From: Candidatus Latescibacterota bacterium
GTDB taxonomy: Bacteria; Latescibacterota; UBA2968; UBA8231
Assembly: GCA_965206595.1 (NCBI GenBank)
Contig: OZ242214.1
Coordinates: forward strand, 3,968,001-4,032,000
DNA length: 64,000 nt
Reading direction: 5' to 3'
Position 1 is the stretch's first letter. The number at the start of each line of letters is the position of its first letter. Shown here in pieces: positions 9,740-23,801 of the stretch. Under the pieces are notes generated by a model that saw only the letters and a program-made list of their open reading frames with translations, was not told the origin of the DNA and searched no databases. The translations under genes were made by a program, and so were the position numbers.

Positions 9740-11002
9740 TCAACCTGTATCCTGCGCCAACTCCTCATGGCGCGCGGCGTAGATCGTCAGCTTGGTCGCG
9801 TCCCCGATCTGTTCGAGCTTGGGGCGGCGCCCGGACAGACGCAGGCTGTCCCTGACCAGGTTCAGGAACCCCTCTCCTCTGGCTTCCATATAGCTGCGGC
9901 CGGTAAGCGCGCTCTTGTAATCGCGCATGAATCCCGCCAGAAGCTGATTCCGGCGGACAGGCTGACAGCCCGCGTACAGGTTCTCGATGGTCAGGGTGTT
10001 GTAGAGGGCACCGGGATTCTGGAACTCGATCCGGTCGGGAAACAGGCGGATGATGATCTGCGAACCCGCGATCTCGTAATCCCGGTGCACGACGGCATTG
10101 ACGACCGCTTCCTGTAGAGCCGTTTCCACGTAACTCGGATAGTCCATTCGGCCCTCTCCGTCCTTCCTGGAGAGCGTCGGAACCAGGGGTGAAAGCCGGA
10201 TGTACGACAGCGCCTGGGCGATCTGCTCGGGCACGGGGCCGACGATCCGCTTGCTGTCCACGGTATTGCCGTCGGGCTCATCGTGGGCATATGCGGCCAG
10301 ATCGATGCAGGCGCCGTTCAAATGCCGCTCGGGCTGTTCGGCAAAGAGCAACAGCCCGAGGTGCGTCGGCGTCACACCCGAGTCCAGCTCGACGGCGAGT
10401 TTGTGGTCGACGAGGGTGGAGCCCCAGTCCTCGGGCCTGGACCAGTCCGGGAAGCGATCGAGGAAATATTGGTTCAAGCGAACCTCGCTCAGATCATCCA
10501 GATTGCTGCCCAAAACCGGTCTTTCTTCTACAGGGCTGGTCAGGCGACGAGCACTCAGCAGGCGTGCCAGTCGTTCCGGAGGGATGGATTGCCGGTGACT
10601 TCCCAATCGTTGAAGAAAGCGGCCGTCGCTCGTCTGGTGTATATCGAATCTGGACATGGGGATTTCAACAATCAGACACAGCTTTGGCACGCTGTCTTCT
10701 CCGGGAAGGTATTCCCAGTTCAACGCCGGTACGATCATAGACTTGCAGTTGTTCAGCGCCACGTTGACTACGAATTGCTCCAGGAGATCGCGCTTCTCGT
10801 GGTCGATTCCGACTGGAATGCGATCGCTGTTGGGCACGCCCATCACAACCTCGCCCCCCTTCGTGTTGGCCATGCTGACGAATACTTCTGCGAGTTTGGA
10901 CGCAGCCCGTCCTTCCTCCCTGGCAAAGGAAATCCTGTCTCCCCGGAACACGATCTCCTTCAGTTCGAGCTCGGTATCTTCCCCCGCCTGTATGGAATTC
11001 AT
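9740..11002 (-). CDS. AlbA_2 (Schlafen-like) domain + HATPase_c_4 (RecG-C-like) protein
   Basis: GEDTELELKE, SMANTKGGEVVMGV, EAVVNAVVHRDY, IEFQNPG, RRNQLLA, MEARGEG. Start uncertain; frame open to 11083. Confidence 0.85.
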   Translation of the reverse strand: MNSIQAGEDTELELKEIVFRGDRISFAREEGRAASKLAEVFVSMANTKGGEVVMGVPNSDRIPVGIDHEKRDLLEQFVVNVALNNCKSMIVPALNWEYLPGEDSVPKLCLIVEIPMSRFDIHQTSDGRFLQRLGSHRQSIPPERLARLLSARRLTSPVEERPVLGSNLDDLSEVRLNQYFLDRFPDWSRPEDWGSTLVDHKLAVELDSGVTPTHLGLLLFAEQPERHLNGACIDLAAYAHDEPDGNTVDSKRIVGPVPEQIAQALSYIRLSPLVPTLSRKDGEGRMDYPSYVETALQEAVVNAVVHRDYEIAGSQIIIRLFPDRIEFQNPGALYNTLTIENLYAGCQPVRRNQLLAGFMRDYKSALTGRSYMEARGEGFLNLVRDSLRLSGRRPKLEQIGDATKLTIYAARHEELAQDTG

Positions 11003-11107
11003 CCGTTCTTTGCTATCAATGGTCTTCGCCGCTCGCTCCGTGATCGGCTGCCTCCGGTGCCGACAGCGCCAACCAGCCGACAACCATGGTATGATAACGA
11101 CTGGCCA

Positions 11108-11443
11108 CTACTGGTCGAAGTACTTCGCCAGGATCAGCTCCTTGATCTCCTCGATCCCCCTTCCTTCATGGTGCCACTTGAAGGCGTCACGGCCTTCTTC
11201 GTTGCACTGGCGTCAGGTAGGGGGACAGCCTCCCTCGTAGCACCAGGCCAGGGTCTGTTTGCAACAGGCGCACGGCACCTCGCTGACCACCTCGGGGATC
11301 TCCTCCAGCAGGGTCCGGTAGAGGGCGAGTCCGTCAGGCGGCAACTCCGGCGGCTGGCTTTGCTGATGCAGGACGTAACCGCCGCCGGACAGAAGAACAG
11401 CTGCCGCTATGACGGCGAGGGCGGCTTTCCCTTTAGTGATCAC
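11108..11443 (-). CDS. PCYCGC-like Cys-rich exported protein with an in-frame TGA (candidate selenoprotein, UxxC)
   Basis: GGAGG RBS and GTG start overlapping the upstream gene; hydrophobic N-terminus; VPCACC..WCY..GCPPT-TGA-RQC..EEIKELILAKYFDQ-TAG, 111 codons with readthrough. Confidence 0.7.
11180..11215 (-). promoter_or_regulatory. Candidate bacterial SECIS element
   Basis: UGA at 11215-11213, then stem GAAGGC/GCCUUC with loop CGUGAC; the loop starts 21 nt after the UGA and has G at position 2. Confidence 0.55.
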
Positions 11444-11903
11444 TGTGCCCCTCCATTTTGCTGGCGGCCGGGGCGGAACCAGCCTCTCCGGCAGGTCGAA
11501 TCTCCGTGATCTCGATCCCGGTCAGGCCTCCCGAGGACCACAGGATCCCCTCGACGCTCACAGCCTGGCCGAGGTGCGGCAGCACAACTTCCTTCGGGTC
11601 GGCATGCCCGGAGGGCAGCACGACGAAAAGGTTCCCCGTCCTCTCCTCGAGGAAGGCCATCGGCATCCCGAGGTTGGCGCAGTAGACGGCGCACTTGGTG
11701 TGCTCCGGCCCGCTGGAGTCGTGGCGGAAGTAGCAGGCGATGTCGACGATCTCCCCCTGCATGGAAGCGGTATCGGCGACGGCCGCCTCGGCCGCCTCCG
11801 CCTTCTGGGTGGAGGCCTTGTCCTCGTGCACCGAGCACTGACTGCCTGTCGCTGCGGCCGGCAGGGCGATGGCGAGGATGGCGGCGAATCGGAAGCGTTT
11901 CAT
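11433..11903 (-). CDS. Exported Cys/His-motif protein (putative periplasmic metal-binding, OB-fold-like)
   Basis: Signal peptide MKRFRFAAILAIALPAAA; GEIVDIACY...HTKCAVYCANLGMP; ATGA overlap with the cusA stop. Confidence 0.8.
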   Translation of the reverse strand: MKRFRFAAILAIALPAAATGSQCSVHEDKASTQKAEAAEAAVADTASMQGEIVDIACYFRHDSSGPEHTKCAVYCANLGMPMAFLEERTGNLFVVLPSGHADPKEVVLPHLGQAVSVEGILWSSGGLTGIEITEIRPAGEAGSAPAASKMEGHSDH

Positions 11904-14900
11904 GCTTTCACTCCTTCGTTGTGGGTGTGTGTATCCGTTGTCGGTTTGGCGCGGTCCCGCATCTGCAGGCCGCGCCAGAGCGTGTAAACGGCCGGCAGCA
12001 CCAGCAGCGCTAACAGTGTAGCGGTCGCCAGCCCCCCTACCATCGGGGCGGCTATCCGCTTCATCACCTGGGACCCTGTTCCCGAGGCCCACATGATCGG
12101 CAGCAGGCCGCCGACCGTCGAGCCTACGGTCATGAAGATCGGCCGCACCCGCCTCGAGGCCCCGTCGACGACGGCCGCGGCGAGATCGCCCGGGCTTTCG
12201 AGCCCGCCCTCCCTGCGGCGGCTTTCGAGCGCCTGGTCGAGGTAGGTCAGCATGACCACCCCGAGCTCGGCGCTGACCCCGGCGAGGGCGATGAACCCCA
12301 CGCCGACGGCGATGCTCATGTTGTAACCGAGCAGGTAGATGAGCCAGATCCCCCCGACCAGGGCGAAGGGGAGCGTCAACATCACCATCAGGCTCTCGGC
12401 GACGCTGCGAAAGTGGAGATACAGGAGCAGGAAGATGATGGCAAGCGTCACCGGAACGACGAGGCTCAGCCGCTGTTTGGCCCTCTCCATGTATTCGTAC
12501 TGGCCGCTCCAGACGAGGCTGTACCCAGGCGGCAGGTCGATCTGCTCGCCGACGGCCTGCCGCGCCTTCTCGACGTAGCTGCCGACGTCGACGTCGCGGA
12601 TGTCGATGTAGACCCAGGCGTTGAGGCGCGCGTTCTCGCTCTTGATGCCGGACGGCCCCTTGCTGAAGCGCAGGTCGGCGACCTGCCCGATGGGGATCTG
12701 CGCCCCCGTTGGCGTGGCCACCAGCACCCGCCGCAGGGCCGGCAGGTTGTCGCGCAGCTCCCGTCCGTAGCGCAGGTTGACCGGGTAGCGCTCGCGCCCC
12801 TCGACGGTGTAGGTAACGTTGACGCCGCCCATGGCCGACAGGATCACGTCCTGCACGTCGCCGACCGTCAGGCCGTAGCGCGCCGCCTCCTCGCGGTCGA
12901 TCTCGAAGTCGACGTAGTTGCCTCCGACGACCCGCTCGGCGTAGACGCTGGCGGTGCCGGGAAGCTCGCGCACCACCTGCTCGATCCGCCGGCCGACCTG
13001 CTCGAGGGTTTCGAGATCGTCGCCGGCGACCTTGATGCCTACGGGGGTCTTGATGCCGGTCGAGAGCATGTCGATGCGCGTCTTGATCGGCATGGTCCAG
13101 GAGTTGGTGAGGCCGGGAAAGCGGACCGCGGCGTCGAGCTCCCTGACCAGCTTCTCCGGGGTCATGCCCGGCCGCCACTCCTCCTGCGGCCGCAGGGTGA
13201 TTGTGGTCTCGATCATCGACAGCGGCGCCGGGTCGGTGGCGGTCTCGGCGCGGCCCACCTTGCCGAACACGTTCTCCACTTCGGGGAAGCTGCGGATGAT
13301 CCGGTCGGTCTGCTGCAGCAGCTCCCGCGCCTTTCTCACGGACACCCCCGGCAGGGTCGTCGGCATGTAGAGCAGGTCCCCCTCGTACAGGGGCGGCATG
13401 AACTCCGACCCGATCATCTCGAAGGGAAAGAGCCGCTGCAGGCGCTGGAGCGCCTGGTGCGCGAAGCTTCCGGGCCGGTCGGCGAAGCGCTCGACGACGG
13501 CGCTGCGGAAGGGAAACAGCGACACGAACATCACCGCCGCGGCGGCGGCGAGCACCGCGGCCTTGTGGCGCAGCAGCCAGCCCAGGACCGACGCGTACCC
13601 CCGGGTCAGCAGGCGGTTGAGGGGGTTGCGGTCCGCGTTGACGACGCGGCCGCGCAGGCAGAAGCCGATCAGCACCGGCACCACCGTGATCGACAGGATG
13701 GCGGCGGCGGCCATGGCGTAGGTCTTGGTGTAGGCCAGCGGCTTGAACAGCCGCCCTTCCTGCGCCTCCAGGGCGAAAACCGGCAGGAAGGACAGGGTGA
13801 CGATCAGCAGCGAGTAGAACAGCGCCGGCCCCACTTCCTTCGAAGCGTTGGCGATGATCTCCCAGTGGCCCTTGCGCCCGGCGTCCCGCGCCAGGTGCCG
13901 GTGGGCGTTCTCGATCTGCACGATGCCGGCGTCGACCATGGCGCCGACGGCGATGGCGATCCCCCCGAGCGACATGATGTTGGCGTTGATGCCCTGGCCC
14001 CACATGACGATGAAGGAGACGAGAATGCCCAGGGGCAGCGTGATGACGGCGGCGAAGGCGCTGCGGAAGTGGAGGAGGAAGAGCGCGCATACCGCGACCA
14101 CCACGAGGCACTCCTCTATCAGCTTCTCCTGCAGATGGCCGACGGCGCGGCGGATGAGCCCGGAGCGGTCGTAGGCGGTCTCCACGACCACCCCTTCCGG
14201 AAGGCCGGCCTCGAGCTCTTCGAGCCTCTCCTTGACGGCGTCGATCACCTTCAGGGCGTTCTCGCCGTAGCGCATCACCACGATGCCGCCGGCGACCTCT
14301 CCTTCGCCGTTCCACTCCGCCAGGCCGCGGCGCAGCTCCGGCCCCACCTGCACGGTGGCGACGTCGCGCACCCGCACCGGCGTCCCGGAGCTGCCGGCGC
14401 TCACCGGCACGTTGCGGATGTCCTCGAGCGACCGGATGTACCCGAGCCCGCGCACCATGAACTCGGTCTCGGCCAGCTCGATGAGGCGGCCGCCGACGTC
14501 GCTGTTGCTGCGCCGGATCGCGGCCCCGACCTGCTGCAGGGGAACCCCGTAGGCCAGCAGCTTGTTGGGGTCGACGGTCACCTGGTACTGCTTGACGAAG
14601 CCGCCGATGCTCGCGACCTCGGCGACCCCGGGCACGCTGGTCAGCTCGTAGCGCAGGTACCAGTCCTGGATCGAGCGCAGCTCGGCGAGGTCGCGGCGGC
14701 CGCTGGTGTCGACCAGGGCGTACTCGTACACCCAGCCGACCCCGGTGGCGTCCGGACCGAGCCTGGGCAGCACCCCTGCCGGCAGGCGGTCCCCGGCGAA
14801 GTTCAGGTACTCGAGCACGCGGCTGCGCGCCCAGTAGATGTCGGTGCCGTCCTCGAAAATGACGTAGACGAAGGAGAGCCCGAAGAAGGAGTACCCCCTC

Positions 14901-15145
14901 ACCGCCTTGGCGAACGGCACCGCCAGCATCGCCGTGCTCAGCGGAAAGGTCACCTGGTCCTCGACCACCTGCGGGGCCTGTCCCGGGTACTCGCTGTACA
15001 CGATCACCTGCACGTCCGACAGGTCGGGGATGGCGTCGAGCGGGGTGTCGGACATGGCGAGGAAACCGGCCGCCGCGGCCAGCAGGGCCAGAAGCAGGGT
15101 CAGCAGCTTGTTGCCGACGCAGGCCTCGATGACTCGGCCTATCAT
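11900..15145 (-). CDS. cusA: CusA/CzcA family heavy-metal efflux RND permease
   Basis: LDAIPDLSDVQVI, NIMSLGGIAIAVGAMVDA, GSEFMPPL.EGDLLYMP, DPAPLSMIET, WTMPIKTRIDML, RIAAPMVGG; Met motifs typical of Cu(I)/Ag(I) CusA. ATG 15145 overlaps the cusB stop. Confidence 0.93.
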   Translation of the reverse strand: MIGRVIEACVGNKLLTLLLALLAAAAGFLAMSDTPLDAIPDLSDVQVIVYSEYPGQAPQVVEDQVTFPLSTAMLAVPFAKAVRGYSFFGLSFVYVIFEDGTDIYWARSRVLEYLNFAGDRLPAGVLPRLGPDATGVGWVYEYALVDTSGRRDLAELRSIQDWYLRYELTSVPGVAEVASIGGFVKQYQVTVDPNKLLAYGVPLQQVGAAIRRSNSDVGGRLIELAETEFMVRGLGYIRSLEDIRNVPVSAGSSGTPVRVRDVATVQVGPELRRGLAEWNGEGEVAGGIVVMRYGENALKVIDAVKERLEELEAGLPEGVVVETAYDRSGLIRRAVGHLQEKLIEECLVVVAVCALFLLHFRSAFAAVITLPLGILVSFIVMWGQGINANIMSLGGIAIAVGAMVDAGIVQIENAHRHLARDAGRKGHWEIIANASKEVGPALFYSLLIVTLSFLPVFALEAQEGRLFKPLAYTKTYAMAAAAILSITVVPVLIGFCLRGRVVNADRNPLNRLLTRGYASVLGWLLRHKAAVLAAAAAVMFVSLFPFRSAVVERFADRPGSFAHQALQRLQRLFPFEMIGSEFMPPLYEGDLLYMPTTLPGVSVRKARELLQQTDRIIRSFPEVENVFGKVGRAETATDPAPLSMIETTITLRPQEEWRPGMTPEKLVRELDAAVRFPGLTNSWTMPIKTRIDMLSTGIKTPVGIKVAGDDLETLEQVGRRIEQVVRELPGTASVYAERVVGGNYVDFEIDREEAARYGLTVGDVQDVILSAMGGVNVTYTVEGRERYPVNLRYGRELRDNLPALRRVLVATPTGAQIPIGQVADLRFSKGPSGIKSENARLNAWVYIDIRDVDVGSYVEKARQAVGEQIDLPPGYSLVWSGQYEYMERAKQRLSLVVPVTLAIIFLLLYLHFRSVAESLMVMLTLPFALVGGIWLIYLLGYNMSIAVGVGFIALAGVSAELGVVMLTYLDQALESRRREGGLESPGDLAAAVVDGASRRVRPIFMTVGSTVGGLLPIMWASGTGSQVMKRIAAPMVGGLATATLLALLVLPAVYTLWRGLQMRDRAKPTTDTHTHNEGVKA

Positions 15146-16539
15146 CACGCACCCTCCCGCATGGACCGGACCGCGGCCTTGAGGTTGCTCTCCGAGTCGA
15201 TCAGGAACTGCGCCGAGGTGACGATCCGCTCCCCTTCGCGGAGGCCGTCGAGCACCTCGTAGAAGCCCTCCGCCTCCGCTCCGACGCGGATCTCGCGCGG
15301 CTGGAAGCGGCCCTCGCCGAGGCTGACGACGGCGAGGCGGCGCGCCCCGGAGTGGATCACCGCCTGCACCGGAACCGCGACGACGCGCTCCTCCGGAAGG
15401 GGCGAGCGGATGGTGACGTTGGCGTACATCTCCGGCTTCAGCTCGAGTCCGGGGTTGGGCAAGGTCACGCGCACCTTCACGGTCCGCGTCTTCGCTTCGA
15501 GGAAGGGGTAGACGTAGGTGACCTTGCCGGTGAAGGTCTTCCCGGGCAGGTAGGGCAGCTCGACCACGGCCTCCTGCCCCTCCCGCACCCACGGCAGCTC
15601 GTACTCGTAGATGTCGGCGTAAACCCAGACATGCGACAGCTCGGCGATGCGGTAGAGGTGCTGCCCCCGGGCGATGTGCTGACCGTCGAACACCGCCTTG
15701 TGAACCACGGTCCCCTGCTGCGGGGAGTGCACGGTCATGGTGCGCCGCACCGACCCGGTCTCCCGCAGCTCGTCTATCTGCCGGTCGCTGATGTCCCAGT
15801 AGCGCAGCCGCTGCAGCGACGCCGACAGCAGGTCGCGCGCCCCTGCGAGGGCGTCGCCCTCCGCGCCCTCCGCGCCCTCCGCGCCGGCGCGGAGGCGCGC
15901 GCTGTAGTCGACCGCGGTCAGAAACTCCTCCTGGGCAGCCACCAGCTCCGGGCTGTAGATCTGCAGCAACGGCTCTCCTTTCCCGACCATCTGCCCGGTG
16001 TAGTCGACGAACAGCTTCTCCACCCAGCCGGCGATCTTGGTGTTGACGTCCGTCATGCGCGTCTCGTCGTAGTCGACGCGGCCGACGGTGCGCAGGGTGC
16101 GGTGCAGAATCCGGCGCTCCACCGCCGCGGTCTTCACCCCGATGTTCTGCACCGTCGCAGCATCGATGGTCACCGTGCCCTCGGCTTCCAGCTCGTCCTC
16201 GTACACCGGCACCAGGTCCATCCCCATCGGAGACTTTCCCGGCTCCGGGGAGGTGTACGACGGGTCCATCGGCGCCCGCCAGTAGGCGATGACGCGTTCG
16301 CCTCCGGAGGCGCTGCCTCCGGCCGGCTCGTCGGCCACCAGGTCCATGCCGCAGATCGGGCAACTGCCCGGACCGTCGGAGACCACGGTCGGGTGCATGG
16401 GACAGCGGTACACGGAGGCTTCCTCATGTTGGGCGTACGACTGCATTTCGAATGCGCCCCCCAGCCACAGGCCGAGACCGAGCCCGGCGGCCAGCGACAG
16501 GACGACGGCGATTCCGTATTTCCACATGGCGGTCTTCAT
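15145..16539 (-). CDS. cusB: CusB-like RND periplasmic adaptor with heavy-metal-binding domains
   Basis: YRCPMHP..GSCPICGMDL and YWRAPMDP..PGKSPMGMDL; YSPELVAAQEE; LKPEMYA; SAQFLIDSES. Confidence 0.92.
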   Translation of the reverse strand: MKTAMWKYGIAVVLSLAAGLGLGLWLGGAFEMQSYAQHEEASVYRCPMHPTVVSDGPGSCPICGMDLVADEPAGGSASGGERVIAYWRAPMDPSYTSPEPGKSPMGMDLVPVYEDELEAEGTVTIDAATVQNIGVKTAAVERRILHRTLRTVGRVDYDETRMTDVNTKIAGWVEKLFVDYTGQMVGKGEPLLQIYSPELVAAQEEFLTAVDYSARLRAGAEGAEGAEGDALAGARDLLSASLQRLRYWDISDRQIDELRETGSVRRTMTVHSPQQGTVVHKAVFDGQHIARGQHLYRIAELSHVWVYADIYEYELPWVREGQEAVVELPYLPGKTFTGKVTYVYPFLEAKTRTVKVRVTLPNPGLELKPEMYANVTIRSPLPEERVVAVPVQAVIHSGARRLAVVSLGEGRFQPREIRVGAEAEGFYEVLDGLREGERIVTSAQFLIDSESNLKAAVRSMREGA

Positions 16540-16712
16540 GTTCTTTCCTCCCGCAGTGCTCGAGCCAGCAGGTAGTCGCGCTTGCCCCGGAAGTCGAGGC
16601 TCCTTCTCTCACGGCGCGGGACCGGCGCGGGTTGGAGCACCCGCCGGAGCGAGCGCGGCAGCGGGCACGGATGTATCGGCGCCTTTGCGGGAATGGTTTT
16701 GTCGGCGAGCAT
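16536..16712 (-). CDS. Small basic ORF (58 aa) inside the cus operon
   Basis: ATG overlaps the TolC-like gene stop (TGATG) and its TGA overlaps the cusB ATG (ATGA). Confidence 0.45.
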   Translation of the reverse strand: MLADKTIPAKAPIHPCPLPRSLRRVLQPAPVPRRERRSLDFRGKRDYLLARALREERT

Positions 16713-17968
16713 CAGAAGAGCCTCCTGCCCACGACGGACTCCAGCTGCGCCAGGGTCTTCTCGTATTGCGACAGGTGGCGGTAGTAGTCGATCTCGAAAT
16801 TCAGCAGGGTCACCTGGCTGTCGAGCAGGGTGAGGAAGTCGACCTCGTCGACCTGGTAGCCGGCGATGGCCGCGGCCAGCGACTGGTCGGCCTGGGGAAT
16901 GATCGCGTCGCGGAACAGCGCCATCTCCCGCAGGTGGGTCTCGGCGTCGATCCGCAGCTGCTCGATCTGCAGGGCCAGCTCGCGGCTTTCCGCCTCGAGC
17001 TCCGCCTCGGCCGCCCTGACCTCCGCCCGCGCCGCGGCGATCTCCCGCTGCCTGCGGCCCTGGTAGACCGGCAGGTTCAGCATCACGCCGGCGGAGAAGA
17101 AGTCGCTTCCCGCCACCGCATCCTCCCTGAAGCCGCGCTGGCGCCAGGCGGCGCTGACCTGGAAATCCGGGCGGCGTTCCCGATCCGCCAGCTCCTCGAC
17201 CGCCCGCCAGCGCTCCCGCCTGGCGCGCAGGCGGTTCAGGAGTGGGCGCTCGCCCTGGGCGAGCGCCCACAGCCGGCCCGCGTCGATGTCGAGAGGGGTC
17301 CGCTCGATCGGGGGCGCCCTGCCCACAGGTTCTCCCGGGGGCCGGTTCAGCACCGCGTTCAGCCGGGCGCCGGTCCGCCGCCGTTGCCGCTCCAGCATCA
17401 ACAGGCGGTCGCGCAGGCTCGACAGCGACACCTGCGCCTTGAGCACGTCCTGCTGGGGGCCGCGGGCCACCGAGTACTTGCTCTGCGCGATGCGAACGAA
17501 ATCCTTCAGCAGCGACCGGTTCCTCTCGGCGATGGCGATCGCCCTGTCGAGGAAGCCCAGCTCGTAATAGGCCTGCTTCACCATGTTGGCGACGGTCAGC
17601 TCGCGTTCCCGGTGGGCGCCTGCAACGGCCTCGGCGGCGTGGGAGGCGGCGCGTTCCCGGGCCTTGCGCTTGCCCGGGTAGGGGAGCTTCTGGGACAGGG
17701 TTACCTGGCGGCCGCTCATCGGCGAGCCGTCGAGGTCGAAGGGACTGAAAGGGACGTTGCTCAGCTCCAGCCGGAGCGACGGGTCCTGCAGCGCCCCGGC
17801 GGCGGGGACCCTGGCCTCGGCCGCGGCGGTCCGGTGCTCGAGCGCCTTCAGCCCGGGATTCGCGGCCAGGGCCTCCTCGATCAGGCGCTCGAGGTCGAGC
17901 TCGGGTGGATCAGCGGACGCGGACGCGGCCAGCGCCAGCGCCGCGGCGGCAATGATTCTTCGGTGCAT
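16712..17968 (-). CDS. TolC/CusC family outer-membrane efflux protein
   Basis: Signal peptide MHRRIIAAAALALAASASA; NPGL, SQKLPYPGKR, LNLPVY, AGYQVDEVDFLTLLD. Confidence 0.9.
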   Translation of the reverse strand: MHRRIIAAAALALAASASADPPELDLERLIEEALAANPGLKALEHRTAAAEARVPAAGALQDPSLRLELSNVPFSPFDLDGSPMSGRQVTLSQKLPYPGKRKARERAASHAAEAVAGAHRERELTVANMVKQAYYELGFLDRAIAIAERNRSLLKDFVRIAQSKYSVARGPQQDVLKAQVSLSSLRDRLLMLERQRRRTGARLNAVLNRPPGEPVGRAPPIERTPLDIDAGRLWALAQGERPLLNRLRARRERWRAVEELADRERRPDFQVSAAWRQRGFREDAVAGSDFFSAGVMLNLPVYQGRRQREIAAARAEVRAAEAELEAESRELALQIEQLRIDAETHLREMALFRDAIIPQADQSLAAAIAGYQVDEVDFLTLLDSQVTLLNFEIDYYRHLSQYEKTLAQLESVVGRRLF

Positions 17969-18128
17969 CTTCCTCCTCCTGCAAAAGGCGAACCGCCCGC
18001 GCACCGGGTAGACCGGTACAGGCGGCAATGCGCAGGACTCGCTGCCCGGCCTTCGGTGCAGAACCGGCCTGCGCTTCGCTTGATGCGCTCTGCATCGGCC
18101 GCGGCGGCGCGACGAGAGCGGAGGAGGA

Positions 18129-18509
18129 TCAGATCAGGTAGACGTCGTGGAGGACGTAGAGGGGAACTGCGGCGGGATGCAGCGGGGGCCGGATGCCGGA
18201 AGGACGCGGCGGTGCCGCCCGGGGAGCGCGCTCCGGAGCCTTGGGGGCGAGCGCCGGGGCCGGGGCCTTGGCCGCGGGCAGGTAGCCGTGGCCCGGCTCG
18301 GCGGAAGGCTGCGAATCCTCGGCGCAGGCCAGGGCGGAGCAGCAGAAGCAATCGGCCCGAAGCTGCGGCCGGTCGTCGGCCTGCTGCGGGTGGCAGCCGG
18401 GAGCCGCCTCCACCTGCGCGCAGTGGAGGCAGTACCCCTCCAGGGCGAAACTGGAAGCCGGCAGGGCGGCGACGAGCGCTGCCAGCGCTATGGCTCGGAC
18501 GATTCTCAT
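18129..18509 (-). CDS. Cys/His-rich, Pro-rich exported peptide at the head of the cus operon (putative metal-sensing leader)
   Basis: Signal peptide, CLHC, CH, CFCC, Pro-rich tail RAAPP...IRPP, ending PLYVLHDVYLI. Confidence 0.65.
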   Translation of the reverse strand: MRIVRAIALAALVAALPASSFALEGYCLHCAQVEAAPGCHPQQADDRPQLRADCFCCSALACAEDSQPSAEPGHGYLPAAKAPAPALAPKAPERAPRAAPPRPSGIRPPLHPAAVPLYVLHDVYLI

Positions 18510-20908: not shown

Positions 20909-22246
20909 CTACAGTTCATATTTTTCAAATTTGTAGCGGAACGTGGTTCGTTCGATACCGAGCAATTTCGCGGCGTCAGCTTTGACCTTGTTTGCCTTTA
21001 GATAGGCATCCCACAAGAGCTGCTTTTCAAAAGCCTCGACGCGCTCCGTCAATGTGCCGCTTTCTACGTGATGTTCAGGCGATTGAACGTTTAGCGAGAG
21101 GTCATCAGGTGTAATCGCGTTCCCCTGCGCCAACACAACGGCGCGTTCGATGGCGTTCTCGAGTTCCCTGACATTGCCCGCCCAAGAGTACGTGGTCAGC
21201 AACTCCATTGCGCTGGGATGCACTGACGACACCTTCTTGCCGATCTCGGCGTTGTACTTGAGCAGGAAATGGGCCACGAGCAGCGGAATGTCTTCGCGAC
21301 GTTCGCGCAAAGGCGGGACGTCGATTGGTACTACATTGAGGCGATAGTACAGGTCTTCACGGAATGCCCCTTCCCTGATGCGGTCGGCCAGGTTTTGATT
21401 GGTCGCGGCGACAAGTCGGACATCGACGGAGATCGAGCGGGTTCCCCCGACGCGCTCGAACTCCCGTTCCTGCAGGACGCGCAGCAGTTTGACCTGCATC
21501 GCCGGCGTACTCTCGCCGATCTCATCGAGAAACAACGTACCGCCATCCGCGATCTCAAAACGTCCTGGTTTCATCTTTACGGCCTGGGTAAATGCGCCTT
21601 TCTCATGGCCGAAAAGTTCGCTTTCCAGCACGCCCTCTGCCAGGGCAGCGCAATTGACTTTGACAAAGGGTTTTTCCCGGCGCGTGCTATGCTGGTGGAT
21701 GGCACGGGCAACGAGCTCTTTCCCAGTGCCGCTTTCCCCGCCGATAAGCACGGTCGACTGGGTCGACCCGACCGTTTGTATCCTGCGAAAGACCGCTTGC
21801 ATTTTAGGGCTTTCACCCATGATCTCGTCAAAGCCGTAACGTAGCTCGTCTTCTCGGCGCAGGTACGCGTTTTCCTTACTGAGACGGCGTCCTCCAAGGG
21901 CTTGTTCAATTTTTATTTCTATCTGTTCAAGCGTGTACGGTTTGGTTATAAAATCCACCGCCCCCTTTTGCATGGCTTCAACGGCCAACTCGATCGTGCC
22001 AAAAGCCGTCATCATTACGACACTCGTTTCCGGCGAGGTCTCGGCAATGGCTGCGAGGACTTCAACCCCGGTCTTCTTTGGCATCTGAATATCAACCATG
22101 GCCAAATCGAAAAAAAACTCCTTGACCGCGGCGATCGCATCCTCTCCGTCAAATGCAACATGGGTCGAATGCCCCAGCCCCCCAAGCGCGAGGGCGAGCC
22201 CTTCTCTGGTGCTTTTATGGTCATCGGCGATCAGTATCCGGCTCAT
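20909..22246 (-). CDS. Sigma54-dependent NtrC-family response regulator
   Basis: Receiver (ILIADD, DIQMP), GESGTGKE, ESELFGHEKGAFTQA, LFLDEIG, FREDLYYRLNV, Fis-type HTH. Confidence 0.95.
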   Translation of the reverse strand: MSRILIADDHKSTREGLALALGGLGHSTHVAFDGEDAIAAVKEFFFDLAMVDIQMPKKTGVEVLAAIAETSPETSVVMMTAFGTIELAVEAMQKGAVDFITKPYTLEQIEIKIEQALGGRRLSKENAYLRREDELRYGFDEIMGESPKMQAVFRRIQTVGSTQSTVLIGGESGTGKELVARAIHQHSTRREKPFVKVNCAALAEGVLESELFGHEKGAFTQAVKMKPGRFEIADGGTLFLDEIGESTPAMQVKLLRVLQEREFERVGGTRSISVDVRLVAATNQNLADRIREGAFREDLYYRLNVVPIDVPPLRERREDIPLLVAHFLLKYNAEIGKKVSSVHPSAMELLTTYSWAGNVRELENAIERAVVLAQGNAITPDDLSLNVQSPEHHVESGTLTERVEAFEKQLLWDAYLKANKVKADAAKLLGIERTTFRYKFEKYEL

Positions 22247-23703
22247 GTCCGTCTCTCTCGTTCCATAGTCGTCGGCAATTTGAGGGCAAACGTCGTACCG
22301 CCGCCATGCTTACTCGTGCATTCAATCGTTCCTCGGTGATGCTCGACCAGCCGTTTTACGATTGCCGACCCCAGCCCCGTGCCCTTGTTTTTAGTGGTAA
22401 AAAACGGGATAAAAGCGCGTTCCGCCGTCTCGGCGGACATACCCACTCCGGTATCCCGAACCTCGACGCGGATGGCATCTGCGTCCGCATCGACAAAACC
22501 TTCGACGGCGATGGTTCCGCCCCGGTCGATTGCTTGCGCGGCATTCTTGAGCAGATTGGTGAACACCCATTTGAGTTGGTCGGCGTCTGCTTCGATTGTG
22601 GGCAAGGTGTCCAGGTTTACCGTTTGAACCTCGATAGTGTCCGCACGCAACTCCGCATCGAAGAGTGCCAGTACTGAAGCGACTACGTCCGACAAGTCCA
22701 CCGCCTCGGCCTGCAACGGCGTCGGACGCGCAAAGTCCAGAAATTCGCTGACCAGTTGGTTCAATGACTGCACTTCCCCATCTACTTGTTCAATCAGTTG
22801 CTCCGCCTTTGGGTCGGCCGGGATCTGGCGTTTGAGCAAGCCTAGGAAAATTCGCATCCCGTTAAGCGGGTTTCTGACTTCATGGGCGAGCCCTGCCGAT
22901 AGCTGTCGAAGCTCCTCGGCCATGCGCGACACCTGCTGGTCCCGCTCTTGAATCGCGATACTCATCTCGTTGAATGTCGTGGCTAGCACGCCAACTTCGT
23001 CTTTACTGCGCGTTTCAACCTGCGTCCCGAATGCCCCGGCCTTAATCTGTTGGGTCGCTTGCGAGAGTCTCTCAATCGGCACGACGATCGACCGAGCTAA
23101 AAAGATGCTGAGGACGAGTGCAAAAACCACACCAACGACGCCGATGAGTACCATGTTGCGGCTCATCCTCGCAAGGCTTTCAAGGAACAGCACACTGGCA
23201 TCCACGGCGAGGATGGCGACGATATCACCGTGTTCGTCGTGGATGGGCGCATACGCAGATCGGTAAAAAGCATCGTCTTTGCCGTGAAAGGCGACTGAAG
23301 CGGCCCATATCCCTCCCTTGGCTTGATCAAGATGGATTCTGTCTTCGCCCAGTGAGTGGTATTGACTGCCAATGGGCACATCAAGGCGGGAATCAACGAG
23401 GCTTTTGTATTCAAGGTCGAGCACGTACATCGCCTGCGCGTCGGAAGCATCGCGCATGGACTGCAGCTTTTTTTGCAGCGTTCGGTACAACCGCGTGCCT
23501 TCGCCGCCCGGCTGGAGTGCGCGCAAGTAGCTTCCATTGAGTTGTGCTGCAGAGGTCTTGGCCACCGCCACGAGCCGTTCGCCCATCTCGGCGTCGAGCG
23601 CACGCTTTGCCGTGTCGTAAAATAGATAACTACTAGCCGTCAAAACCAAGACCACGAGCAGCGCAATGGTGAGGGTTGTCTTGGTTTGGAGGCGAACCTT
23701 CAT
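22243..23703 (-). CDS. HAMP-domain sensor histidine kinase
   Basis: Two TM helices, HAMP, AHEVRNPL H-box, NLLKNA, DTGVGM, FFTTK, GTGLG; overlaps the regulator start. Confidence 0.93.
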   Translation of the reverse strand: MKVRLQTKTTLTIALLVVLVLTASSYLFYDTAKRALDAEMGERLVAVAKTSAAQLNGSYLRALQPGGEGTRLYRTLQKKLQSMRDASDAQAMYVLDLEYKSLVDSRLDVPIGSQYHSLGEDRIHLDQAKGGIWAASVAFHGKDDAFYRSAYAPIHDEHGDIVAILAVDASVLFLESLARMSRNMVLIGVVGVVFALVLSIFLARSIVVPIERLSQATQQIKAGAFGTQVETRSKDEVGVLATTFNEMSIAIQERDQQVSRMAEELRQLSAGLAHEVRNPLNGMRIFLGLLKRQIPADPKAEQLIEQVDGEVQSLNQLVSEFLDFARPTPLQAEAVDLSDVVASVLALFDAELRADTIEVQTVNLDTLPTIEADADQLKWVFTNLLKNAAQAIDRGGTIAVEGFVDADADAIRVEVRDTGVGMSAETAERAFIPFFTTKNKGTGLGSAIVKRLVEHHRGTIECTSKHGGGTTFALKLPTTMERERRT

Positions 23704-23801
23704 GCGTTTTTTCACACGTAGTAATTTATTGAATAACAGCCGGAAAAAAATGGGTCCATGGCGGGGCCCCCGTGGCGCGCAACAAAACATTTTGAGCCTT
23801 C

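Follow-up and report, generated by a model that had tools for sequence, protein, structure and literature searches.

The analysis of a 64,000-nucleotide stretch of DNA from Candidatus Latescibacterota bacterium (assembly GCA_965206595.1, contig OZ242214.1, positions 3,968,001 to 4,032,000; the whole stretch is called the window below) revealed a small gene on the minus strand in which an in-frame TGA very probably encodes selenocysteine (Sec). The gene stands at the end of a row of genes for a Cus-type efflux pump, and sequence comparison places its product in a divergent branch of the PCYCGC superfamily. That these parts belong together, i.e. that this is a selenoprotein gene of that branch closing a Cus operon, appears to us almost as probable as the decoding of the TGA itself; a part in the handling of copper and silver is its putative function. 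A first-pass annotation, made from the letters of the window, had proposed a new, exported, PCYCGC-like selenoprotein ending a Cu/Ag efflux operon. The elements of the gene are the following:

11108..11443, minus strand: predicted selenoprotein gene of 111 codons, with a GTG start at 11443, Sec at codon 77 and a TAG stop at 11110-11108
11213..11215, minus strand: TGA conserved in relatives and very probably read as selenocysteine (U77 of the UxxC motif)
11197-11180, minus strand: hairpin GAAGGC-CGUGAC-GCCUUC resembling a selenocysteine insertion sequence (SECIS), with a 6-bp stem and a 6-nt loop, CGUGAC

The anatomy of the gene and its recoding signals can be read directly from the DNA. The sequence GGAGGGG precedes the GTG start, and the frame runs through 76 codons before the TGA (11215-11213) and 34 sense codons after it up to the TAG. 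Cys80 lies three residues past the TGA, giving U-R-Q-C as the UxxC motif. The hairpin starts 18 nt past the TGA. Its loop, with G as the second letter, is separated from the UGA by 21 nt. The frame, the TGA at codon 77, the UxxC motif and the geometry of the hairpin were thus all found where the first-pass annotation had placed them. It had also singled out the letters of the TGA for a check against reads; short-read-derived Logan contigs from three studies contained no differing letter at 11213-11215. In an alignment of the clade (A1, 24 rows) seven Cys/Sec positions are invariant: C58, C60, C61, C68, C73, U77 and C80.

We searched all 168 genomes of the phylum in six frames, leaving the six weakest matches (E 0.001-0.008) out of the counts. 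In 11 other genomes a full-length match was broken by TGA at the same codon, and in four genomes the match was uninterrupted. With the window's own locus included, TGA was present at codon 77 in 12 of 12 Sec-form genome loci, and in all 12 the motif C-P-P-[TSL]-U-x-x-C-N-[EN]-E-G-R precedes a conserved helix at the C-terminus. Metagenome contigs, scanned with an 11-row alignment as query, added 16 loci, each with TGA at this place, bringing the number beyond the window's own to 27. One of these 16 contigs ends 5 codons past the TGA; the downstream peptide was conserved in all the others. A further metagenome match without the motif was discarded as unrelated. Residues downstream of the TGA were fixed while their codons varied synonymously (four codons for G94, three for I100, two for K107), which demonstrates that the region beyond the TGA is translated. 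This conservation of the downstream protein extends to relatives at only 44-47% identity.

Interchange of Sec and Cys at codon 77, which the first-pass annotation had named as a test, was observed as well. TGT or TGC replaces TGA in the four Cys-form loci, all in genus g18. Four other genomes of g18 have the Sec form; the Cys forms are 34-40% identical to the window protein. The branch uniting the Sec forms received a support of 56/88 and appeared in 60% of bootstrap trees, which does not resolve whether they had a single origin. Among 35 representatives at 50% identity, eight were full-length Cys proteins and 23 ended exactly at codon 77.

Predicted proteins close to the window protein carry the mark of the same TGA: 17 of 18 stop directly after C-P-P-T/S. 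The sole "full-length" one, P0002, has W at the Sec codon. Its DNA locus shows TGA at this position, and the W is thus explained by a gene call with table 4. A database protein, P0040, reads the Sec codon as G, probably reflecting table 25. Gene calls of this kind can make a selenoprotein look like a Trp or Gly "variant". Seven relatives have TGA as the true stop of this same gene, which shows that the lineage does not read TGA as sense in general.

The machinery needed to decode UGA as Sec, for which the first-pass annotation had suggested a look at the genome, was found in its 7.05 Mb. Matches were obtained for selA (539.1 bits), selB (338.4 bits) and selD (367.8 bits), and for a tRNA-Sec with anticodon TCA (71.6 bits). 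A second Rfam match to tRNA-Sec (50.5 bits) was set aside; ARAGORN calls it tRNA-Leu. The selD gene itself contains one in-frame TGA, which when read as U gives the expected active-site Sec:

G000:C1 about 6566353-6567408, minus strand: Sec-containing selD, with U in the N-terminal active-site motif

This gene proves independently that the organism decodes TGA as Sec. The selA gene was also above cut-off in all 10 relatives tested (six carriers of the Sec form and four of the Cys form), and all eight g18 genomes have it, four with the Sec form and four with the Cys form.

The hairpin downstream of the TGA was then considered against published criteria. The legend to Fig. 2 of PMC13188914 describes bacterial SECIS elements as having a loop of 3-9 nt, a stem of 4-16 bp and G in one of the first two loop positions, at 16-37 nt from the UGA and with a minimum free energy of -7.5 kcal/mol or lower. 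The hairpin lies within all the limits quoted there (loop 6 nt, stem 6 bp, spacing 21 nt, -9.3 kcal/mol). Folded in isolation it had a z-score of -3.46, and one of 200 shuffled sequences was as stable. In 15 distinct Sec-type sequences the six stem pairs were standard in 90 of 90 cells; this fell to 36-54% when the 3′ partners were slid by 1-3 columns. RNAalifold independently gave exactly the same hairpin. It formed part of the minimum-energy fold in four of four Sec forms folded and in none of four Cys forms, and the four Cys-type loci have other residues in this stretch and no hairpin there.

Codon usage in the stem is more informative. G84, a stem residue, was encoded by GGC in all 15 sequences; the invariant glycines outside the stem (G38, G71 and G94) used four codons each in the same set. 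R85 was CGT in 14 of 15 sequences and F88 was TTC in 13 of 13. A87 was GCC in 13 of 15, and both sequences with GCT retain a G-U pair. This freezing of synonymous sites in the stem codons is a stronger argument for the predicted hairpin than covariation. Overall, it is comparative conservation and not thermodynamics that lifts the UGA with its hairpin above chance.

The relationship of the protein was established by profile comparison. A Pfam scan of the read-through protein gave no family at E<=1, and PF13798 was not matched at its gathering score. The only NCBIfam match was NF041379, "CYCXC family (seleno)protein" (OS_HP4_CYCXC), at 33.8 bits and E 2.5e-8, below the 90-bit cut-off of that model. 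Members of the clade score 26-36 bits on NF041379 and none of the 168 genomes of the phylum has a protein above the cut-off; a canonical protein used as control, P0054, scored 113 bits. Comparison by hhalign of the clade profile (24 rows) with 26 canonical PCYCGC proteins gave a probability of 98.85% (E 4e-17, 116 columns) and aligned U77 with the first Cys of the canonical CxxC (C118 of P0054). Phmmer joined P0001 to P0054 at E 3.8e-4 among 1.84 billion proteins, and tblastn of P0001 against 72,556 plasmids gave no match. A tree separated the CxCC clade from PCYCGC with a support of 100/100.

Both groups are small proteins of exported or lipoprotein type with a Cys cluster, a CxxC and then an amphipathic helix ending in K-Y, and the Sec described here takes the place of the first Cys in the canonical CxxC. 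They differ in the cluster, which is P-C-x-C-C in the clade (invariant C58, C60 and C61) and P-C-Y-C-G-C in canonical members, and in the segment between cluster and CxxC, which in the clade is shorter and holds an extra invariant Cys (C73). On sequence grounds we assign the gene to a divergent CxCC branch of the PCYCGC/CYCXC superfamily (OS_HP4, PF13798/NF041379).

The first-pass annotation was therefore right in calling the protein PCYCGC-like; its claim of a new selenoprotein is not supported in the sense of a new family, since PCYCGC/CYCXC has already been listed with UxxC and has its Sec at the homologous position. OS_HP4/CYCXC (PF13798) is tabulated in PMC9312934 and PMC13188914 among the selenoprotein families, with one Sec in UxxC, and these reviews attribute its original description to the Olavius-symbiont study. 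The main-text passages searched in that study (PMC1976440) name OS_HP1-3 only; neither they nor those of PMC2398784 describe OS_HP4, which may be in the supplements. What is new is a divergent CxCC Sec subfamily found behind cusA, missed by both family models and cut short in public gene calls. In the window protein's 90%-identity cluster, the 13 members read all have 75-76 residues, i.e. they are cut at the TGA, and the names given in three of the 13 are only "hypothetical protein". The published accounts that we found on PCYCGC do not treat its function, and among the papers listed by a literature search none relevant to selenoproteins in Latescibacter was found. Main-text passages of deep-Sep and BSepDB do not mention the PCYCGC/CYCXC family.

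The gene neighbourhood was observed as follows. In the window the selenoprotein gene is the last in a minus-strand row of CusC-CusB-CusA type, and its first 11 nt overlap the end of the upstream gene, whose stop codon is at 11435-11433, in agreement with the first-pass placement at the end of a Cus operon. The other genes of the region are:

11433..11903, minus strand: exported 156-residue protein with no Pfam or NCBIfam family, encoded between cusA and the selenoprotein gene
11900..15145, minus strand: heavy-metal permease of CusA/CzcA type from the resistance-nodulation-division (RND) group, 1081 residues (TIGR00914 1235 bits, PF00873)
15145..16539, minus strand: CusB-like periplasmic adaptor with N-terminal heavy-metal-binding (HMBD) motifs (PF16576, PF19335, NF007303)
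16712..18028, minus strand: outer-membrane efflux protein, TolC/CusC-like (PF02321)
18129-18509, minus strand: Cys-rich small protein of 126 residues with a signal-like N-terminus and no family match, just upstream of the outer-membrane gene
20909-23790, minus strand: sigma-54-type response regulator (445 residues) and histidine kinase (515 residues), about 3 kb upstream of the efflux operon

Neighbourhoods were compared in 15 stretches of up to 19 kb each around relatives (11 Sec-form and four Cys-form). In eight of the 11 Sec-form loci the selenoprotein gene comes directly after cusA or is separated from it only by the 156-residue gene; in one of the eight it precedes the pump genes. The four Cys-form genes lie after cusA (L059), 3 kb from cusA (L061), before a P-type ATPase with YHS/HMBD (L058) and beside a hybrid histidine kinase. 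In one g18 genome, G162, the Cys form fills the same slot directly after cusA, and either type can therefore occupy this operon position. Among 50 matching plasmid records, three Burkholderia-group loci were inspected; in each of them the canonical PCYCGC gene of Cys type, which is distant from the clade, was located in a copper island. These islands carry RND permease, copper-binding protein, DsbD, multicopper oxidase, TlpA, SCO or CueR, and the link with copper therefore seems to extend across the superfamily and not to the Sec branch only. Among the papers listed by a literature search, none described a Sec protein as a natural part of a Cus system. The consistent placement of a CxCC selenoprotein behind cusA is new, in that no description of it was found.

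Some of the neighbouring genes deserve mention in their own right. Across five relatives the invariant residues of the 156-residue protein include C57, H61, C71, C75 and H100, which suggests another metal or redox site. The gene is present in the Cus operons of some relatives and absent from others, and the ESM Atlas gave only unnamed clusters for its product, with DUF5818 on 13% of one. The Cys-rich 126-residue protein is kept in the same place in four relatives at 53-92% identity. The sigma-54 response regulator and histidine kinase are a possible regulator of the operon; a sigma-54 response regulator also adjoins the gene in one Cys-form locus (L058). A scan of 10700-11500 for promoters and terminators found nothing convincing 3′ of the selenoprotein gene; it gave one promoter-like site across the stop region and one weak terminator-like site within the gene.

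The structure of the protein was predicted with AlphaFold2 from the 24-row alignment. Residues 31-110 were modelled with a predicted local distance difference test (pLDDT) of 93-98, with helices at 39-48, 50-53, 65-72, 78-92 and 97-109, making up a helical Cys-rich domain at residues about 34-110. In the model U77 sits at the N-terminus of a helix. The N-terminus of the protein has two lysines and then a hydrophobic stretch of about 19 residues (about 7-25), which looks like a signal peptide or membrane anchor. This agrees with the first-pass annotation, which had inferred an exported protein. A simple pattern detected a lipobox in 11 of 53 listed relatives, and the canonical family is annotated as "(lipo)protein" in plasmid records. 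From these features we infer that the protein is extracytoplasmic, either exported or membrane-tethered.

The best natural structural match was CcmH, a helical periplasmic CxxC thiol-disulfide oxidoreductase of cytochrome c maturation. All the scores for it were below significance: Foldseek with PF03918 structure 2hl7 gave E 1.4 and a template-modelling (TM) score of 0.55, VIA-align with the CcmH periplasmic domain gave Z 5.0 and a root-mean-square deviation of 3.1 Å over 66 residues, a profile search of the PDB ranked CcmH (2kw0) first at E 0.58, and hhalign with the CcmH of the same bacterial family gave 83.5% over 60 columns. Common to the two proteins are a membrane-tethered helical domain, Cys motifs and a G-x-S-x-x-E-I helix. 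In the alignment, the Cys motif of CcmH falls on the CxCC cluster and not on UxxC. The canonical PCYCGC profile did not match CcmH (16% by hhalign). We take CcmH as a lead toward a helical, non-thioredoxin redox fold and not as a relationship. About half of the CcmH rows of this lineage (L101-L120) show an unusual, extended Cys motif, C-x-C-G-x-C ... C-x-C, and in many genomes of genus g12 CcmH lies within an open frame of about 830 residues, where it may be fused to a further protein of cytochrome maturation.

A number of observations weigh against the reading of the gene as a Cus-linked selenoprotein. The simplest rival takes the TGA as a true stop, the product being a 76-residue protein that ends after CPPT and the downstream frame with its hairpin a leftover or a transcript-stabilising element. 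All automatic gene calls do end at the TGA. The 60-nt windows starting at the UGA are not unusual in folding energy (z -0.4 to -1.2), and folding energy alone therefore shows no more than chance. Covariation in the stem is thin: four of the six pairs never vary, one of the two variable pairs changes to G-U, and the other occurs as A-U, as G-U (four sequences) and as G-C (two sequences, a double change). This single compensatory change comes from one lineage, and the column-shuffle control was not significant, with 68 of 500 shuffles reaching the observed score. No Rfam family was detected over 10900-11500 at E<=10, where the only match was a chance one to a microRNA (13.9 bits). All four carriers of the Cys form have selA, and the choice between Sec and Cys is thus not explained by the machinery. 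The full-length protein and the incorporation of selenium at UGA77 are predicted. The sole RNA evidence is one contig of 209 nt at 10995-11203, which stops short of the TGA and is possibly DNA carry-over; the remainder of the gene had no RNA cover in the one RNA run compared. This contig comes from a run labelled as sponge metatranscriptome and corresponds, with two differences, to the last third of the gene and the spacer beyond, a weak hint at transcription and habitat. Despite this, a true stop is very improbable. It would leave the conservation of 34 downstream codons as protein, with synonymous variation and in relatives down to 44-47% identity, without explanation, together with the freezing of the stem codons; the Cys-form homologs continue without interruption at this codon, a product ending there would lack the invariant C80 and the conserved helix at the C-terminus, and the genome has the complete Sec machinery. 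An error of sequencing or assembly, or a recent mutation turning a Cys codon into a pseudogene, could be imagined in a single-contig assembly of long-read style, which may carry base errors. The occurrence of the same TGA in 27 other loci, and the agreement of the short-read-derived contigs, refute it.

The second part of the reading, the link with Cu/Ag efflux, has a more serious competitor, in which the protein is a selenoprotein unrelated to this efflux, such as a CcmH-type envelope oxidoreductase or a protein for Hg or another soft metal, and its placement behind cusA is incidental. In the DNA compared, three of the 11 Sec-form and two of the four Cys-form loci are not beside a metal pump, the neighbours including glycosidases, a PhyH dioxygenase, a histidine kinase and a transposase. 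CcmH ranks first among the natural structural matches as well as in the PDB profile search, and a passage of PMC13068155 reports a Firmicute PCYCGC lipoprotein beside an Fe3+ binding protein. The resemblance to CcmH is, however, weak and absent for the canonical family profile, its scores all fall within the chance range for helical bundles, and a separate bona fide CcmH is already present in 71 of 76 genomes of the bacterial family. Adjacency to cusA or to a P1B ATPase recurs in several genera and in two operon lineages (CusA 90% and 71% identical), and distant Cys-type PCYCGC genes on Burkholderia-group plasmids are also within copper islands. A role outside Cus systems is on these grounds unlikely, though less so than a true stop.

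The reading that we prefer, a Cus-linked selenoprotein, could be translated into the following course of events. SelB and tRNA-Sec would recode UGA77 to Sec, guided by the hairpin 21 nt downstream. The product would be a 111-residue protein, exported or tethered to the membrane through its N-terminal hydrophobic segment, with a compact helical domain holding the CxCC cluster, two further Cys and U77-x-x-C80 at the N-terminus of a helix. Outside the cytoplasm it would handle Cu(I)/Ag(I) stress together with the pump.

The substrate and chemistry of the protein, like its location, we infer from the context and motifs of the gene. If the reading is accepted, the protein could quite plausibly be a selenol/thiol redox protein that reduces Cu(II), or disulfides damaged by copper, and so allows the export of Cu(I); the DsbD/TlpA company of its Cys relatives, the weak resemblance to CcmH and the fact that most bacterial Sec sites are redox sites favour this option. 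More tentatively, it might be a high-affinity protein for Cu(I)/Ag(I) binding or transfer with the selenolate as a ligand, an option favoured by an operon without a CusF gene. A passage of PMC13188914 also remarks on Sec as a possible ligand for metals in resistance proteins. Going further, one could suppose that the Sec protein is a dedicated fourth or fifth component of CusCBA, with selenolate and CxCC taking up or reducing Cu/Ag in the envelope and passing it to the pump; we consider this rather unlikely. If true, it would represent a selenium-dependent step in heavy-metal efflux and give the uncharacterised PCYCGC superfamily its first function, possibly with a CcmH-like non-thioredoxin redox fold.

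The findings also have consequences for annotation. Public gene calls truncate the whole clade at codon 77, and neither the NCBIfam nor the Pfam model of the superfamily to which it belongs recognises it; a model made for the clade, with a rule that takes Sec into account, would mend this. For a family without an assigned function, the placement behind cusA and the copper islands provide a testable hypothesis, namely handling of Cu/Ag in the envelope by thiol/selenol chemistry.

Among known systems, the CusCFBA of Escherichia coli is the obvious comparison. CusF is a periplasmic Cu(I)/Ag(I) chaperone, a beta-barrel with Met/His/Trp ligands. Like the protein described here, it is small, extracytoplasmic and encoded within a Cus operon, and since the operon in the window has no CusF-type gene, a role in handing over soft metals would fit. 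The two have no sequence relation (no Pfam family at E<=1), and the window protein is predicted to be all-helical. Simple replacement of CusF is argued against by the Burkholderia-group islands, which carry a "copper-binding protein" beside the RND gene and the PCYCGC gene.

A connection between selenoproteins and metal resistance is itself an established theme (PMC13188914), to which the present gene adds a case in metagenome-assembled genomes labelled as Latescibacterota. The selenoproteins linked to metal resistance in passages of that paper are a cation-transporting E1-E2 ATPase, a YHS-domain protein, the SO_0444 Cu/Zn efflux transporter and a mercuric transport protein. They belong to unrelated families, and none is described in those passages as an accessory of an RND CusCBA pump. 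What they share with the protein predicted here is a Sec within a Cys-type metal or redox motif and a gene that is encoded together with detoxification genes.

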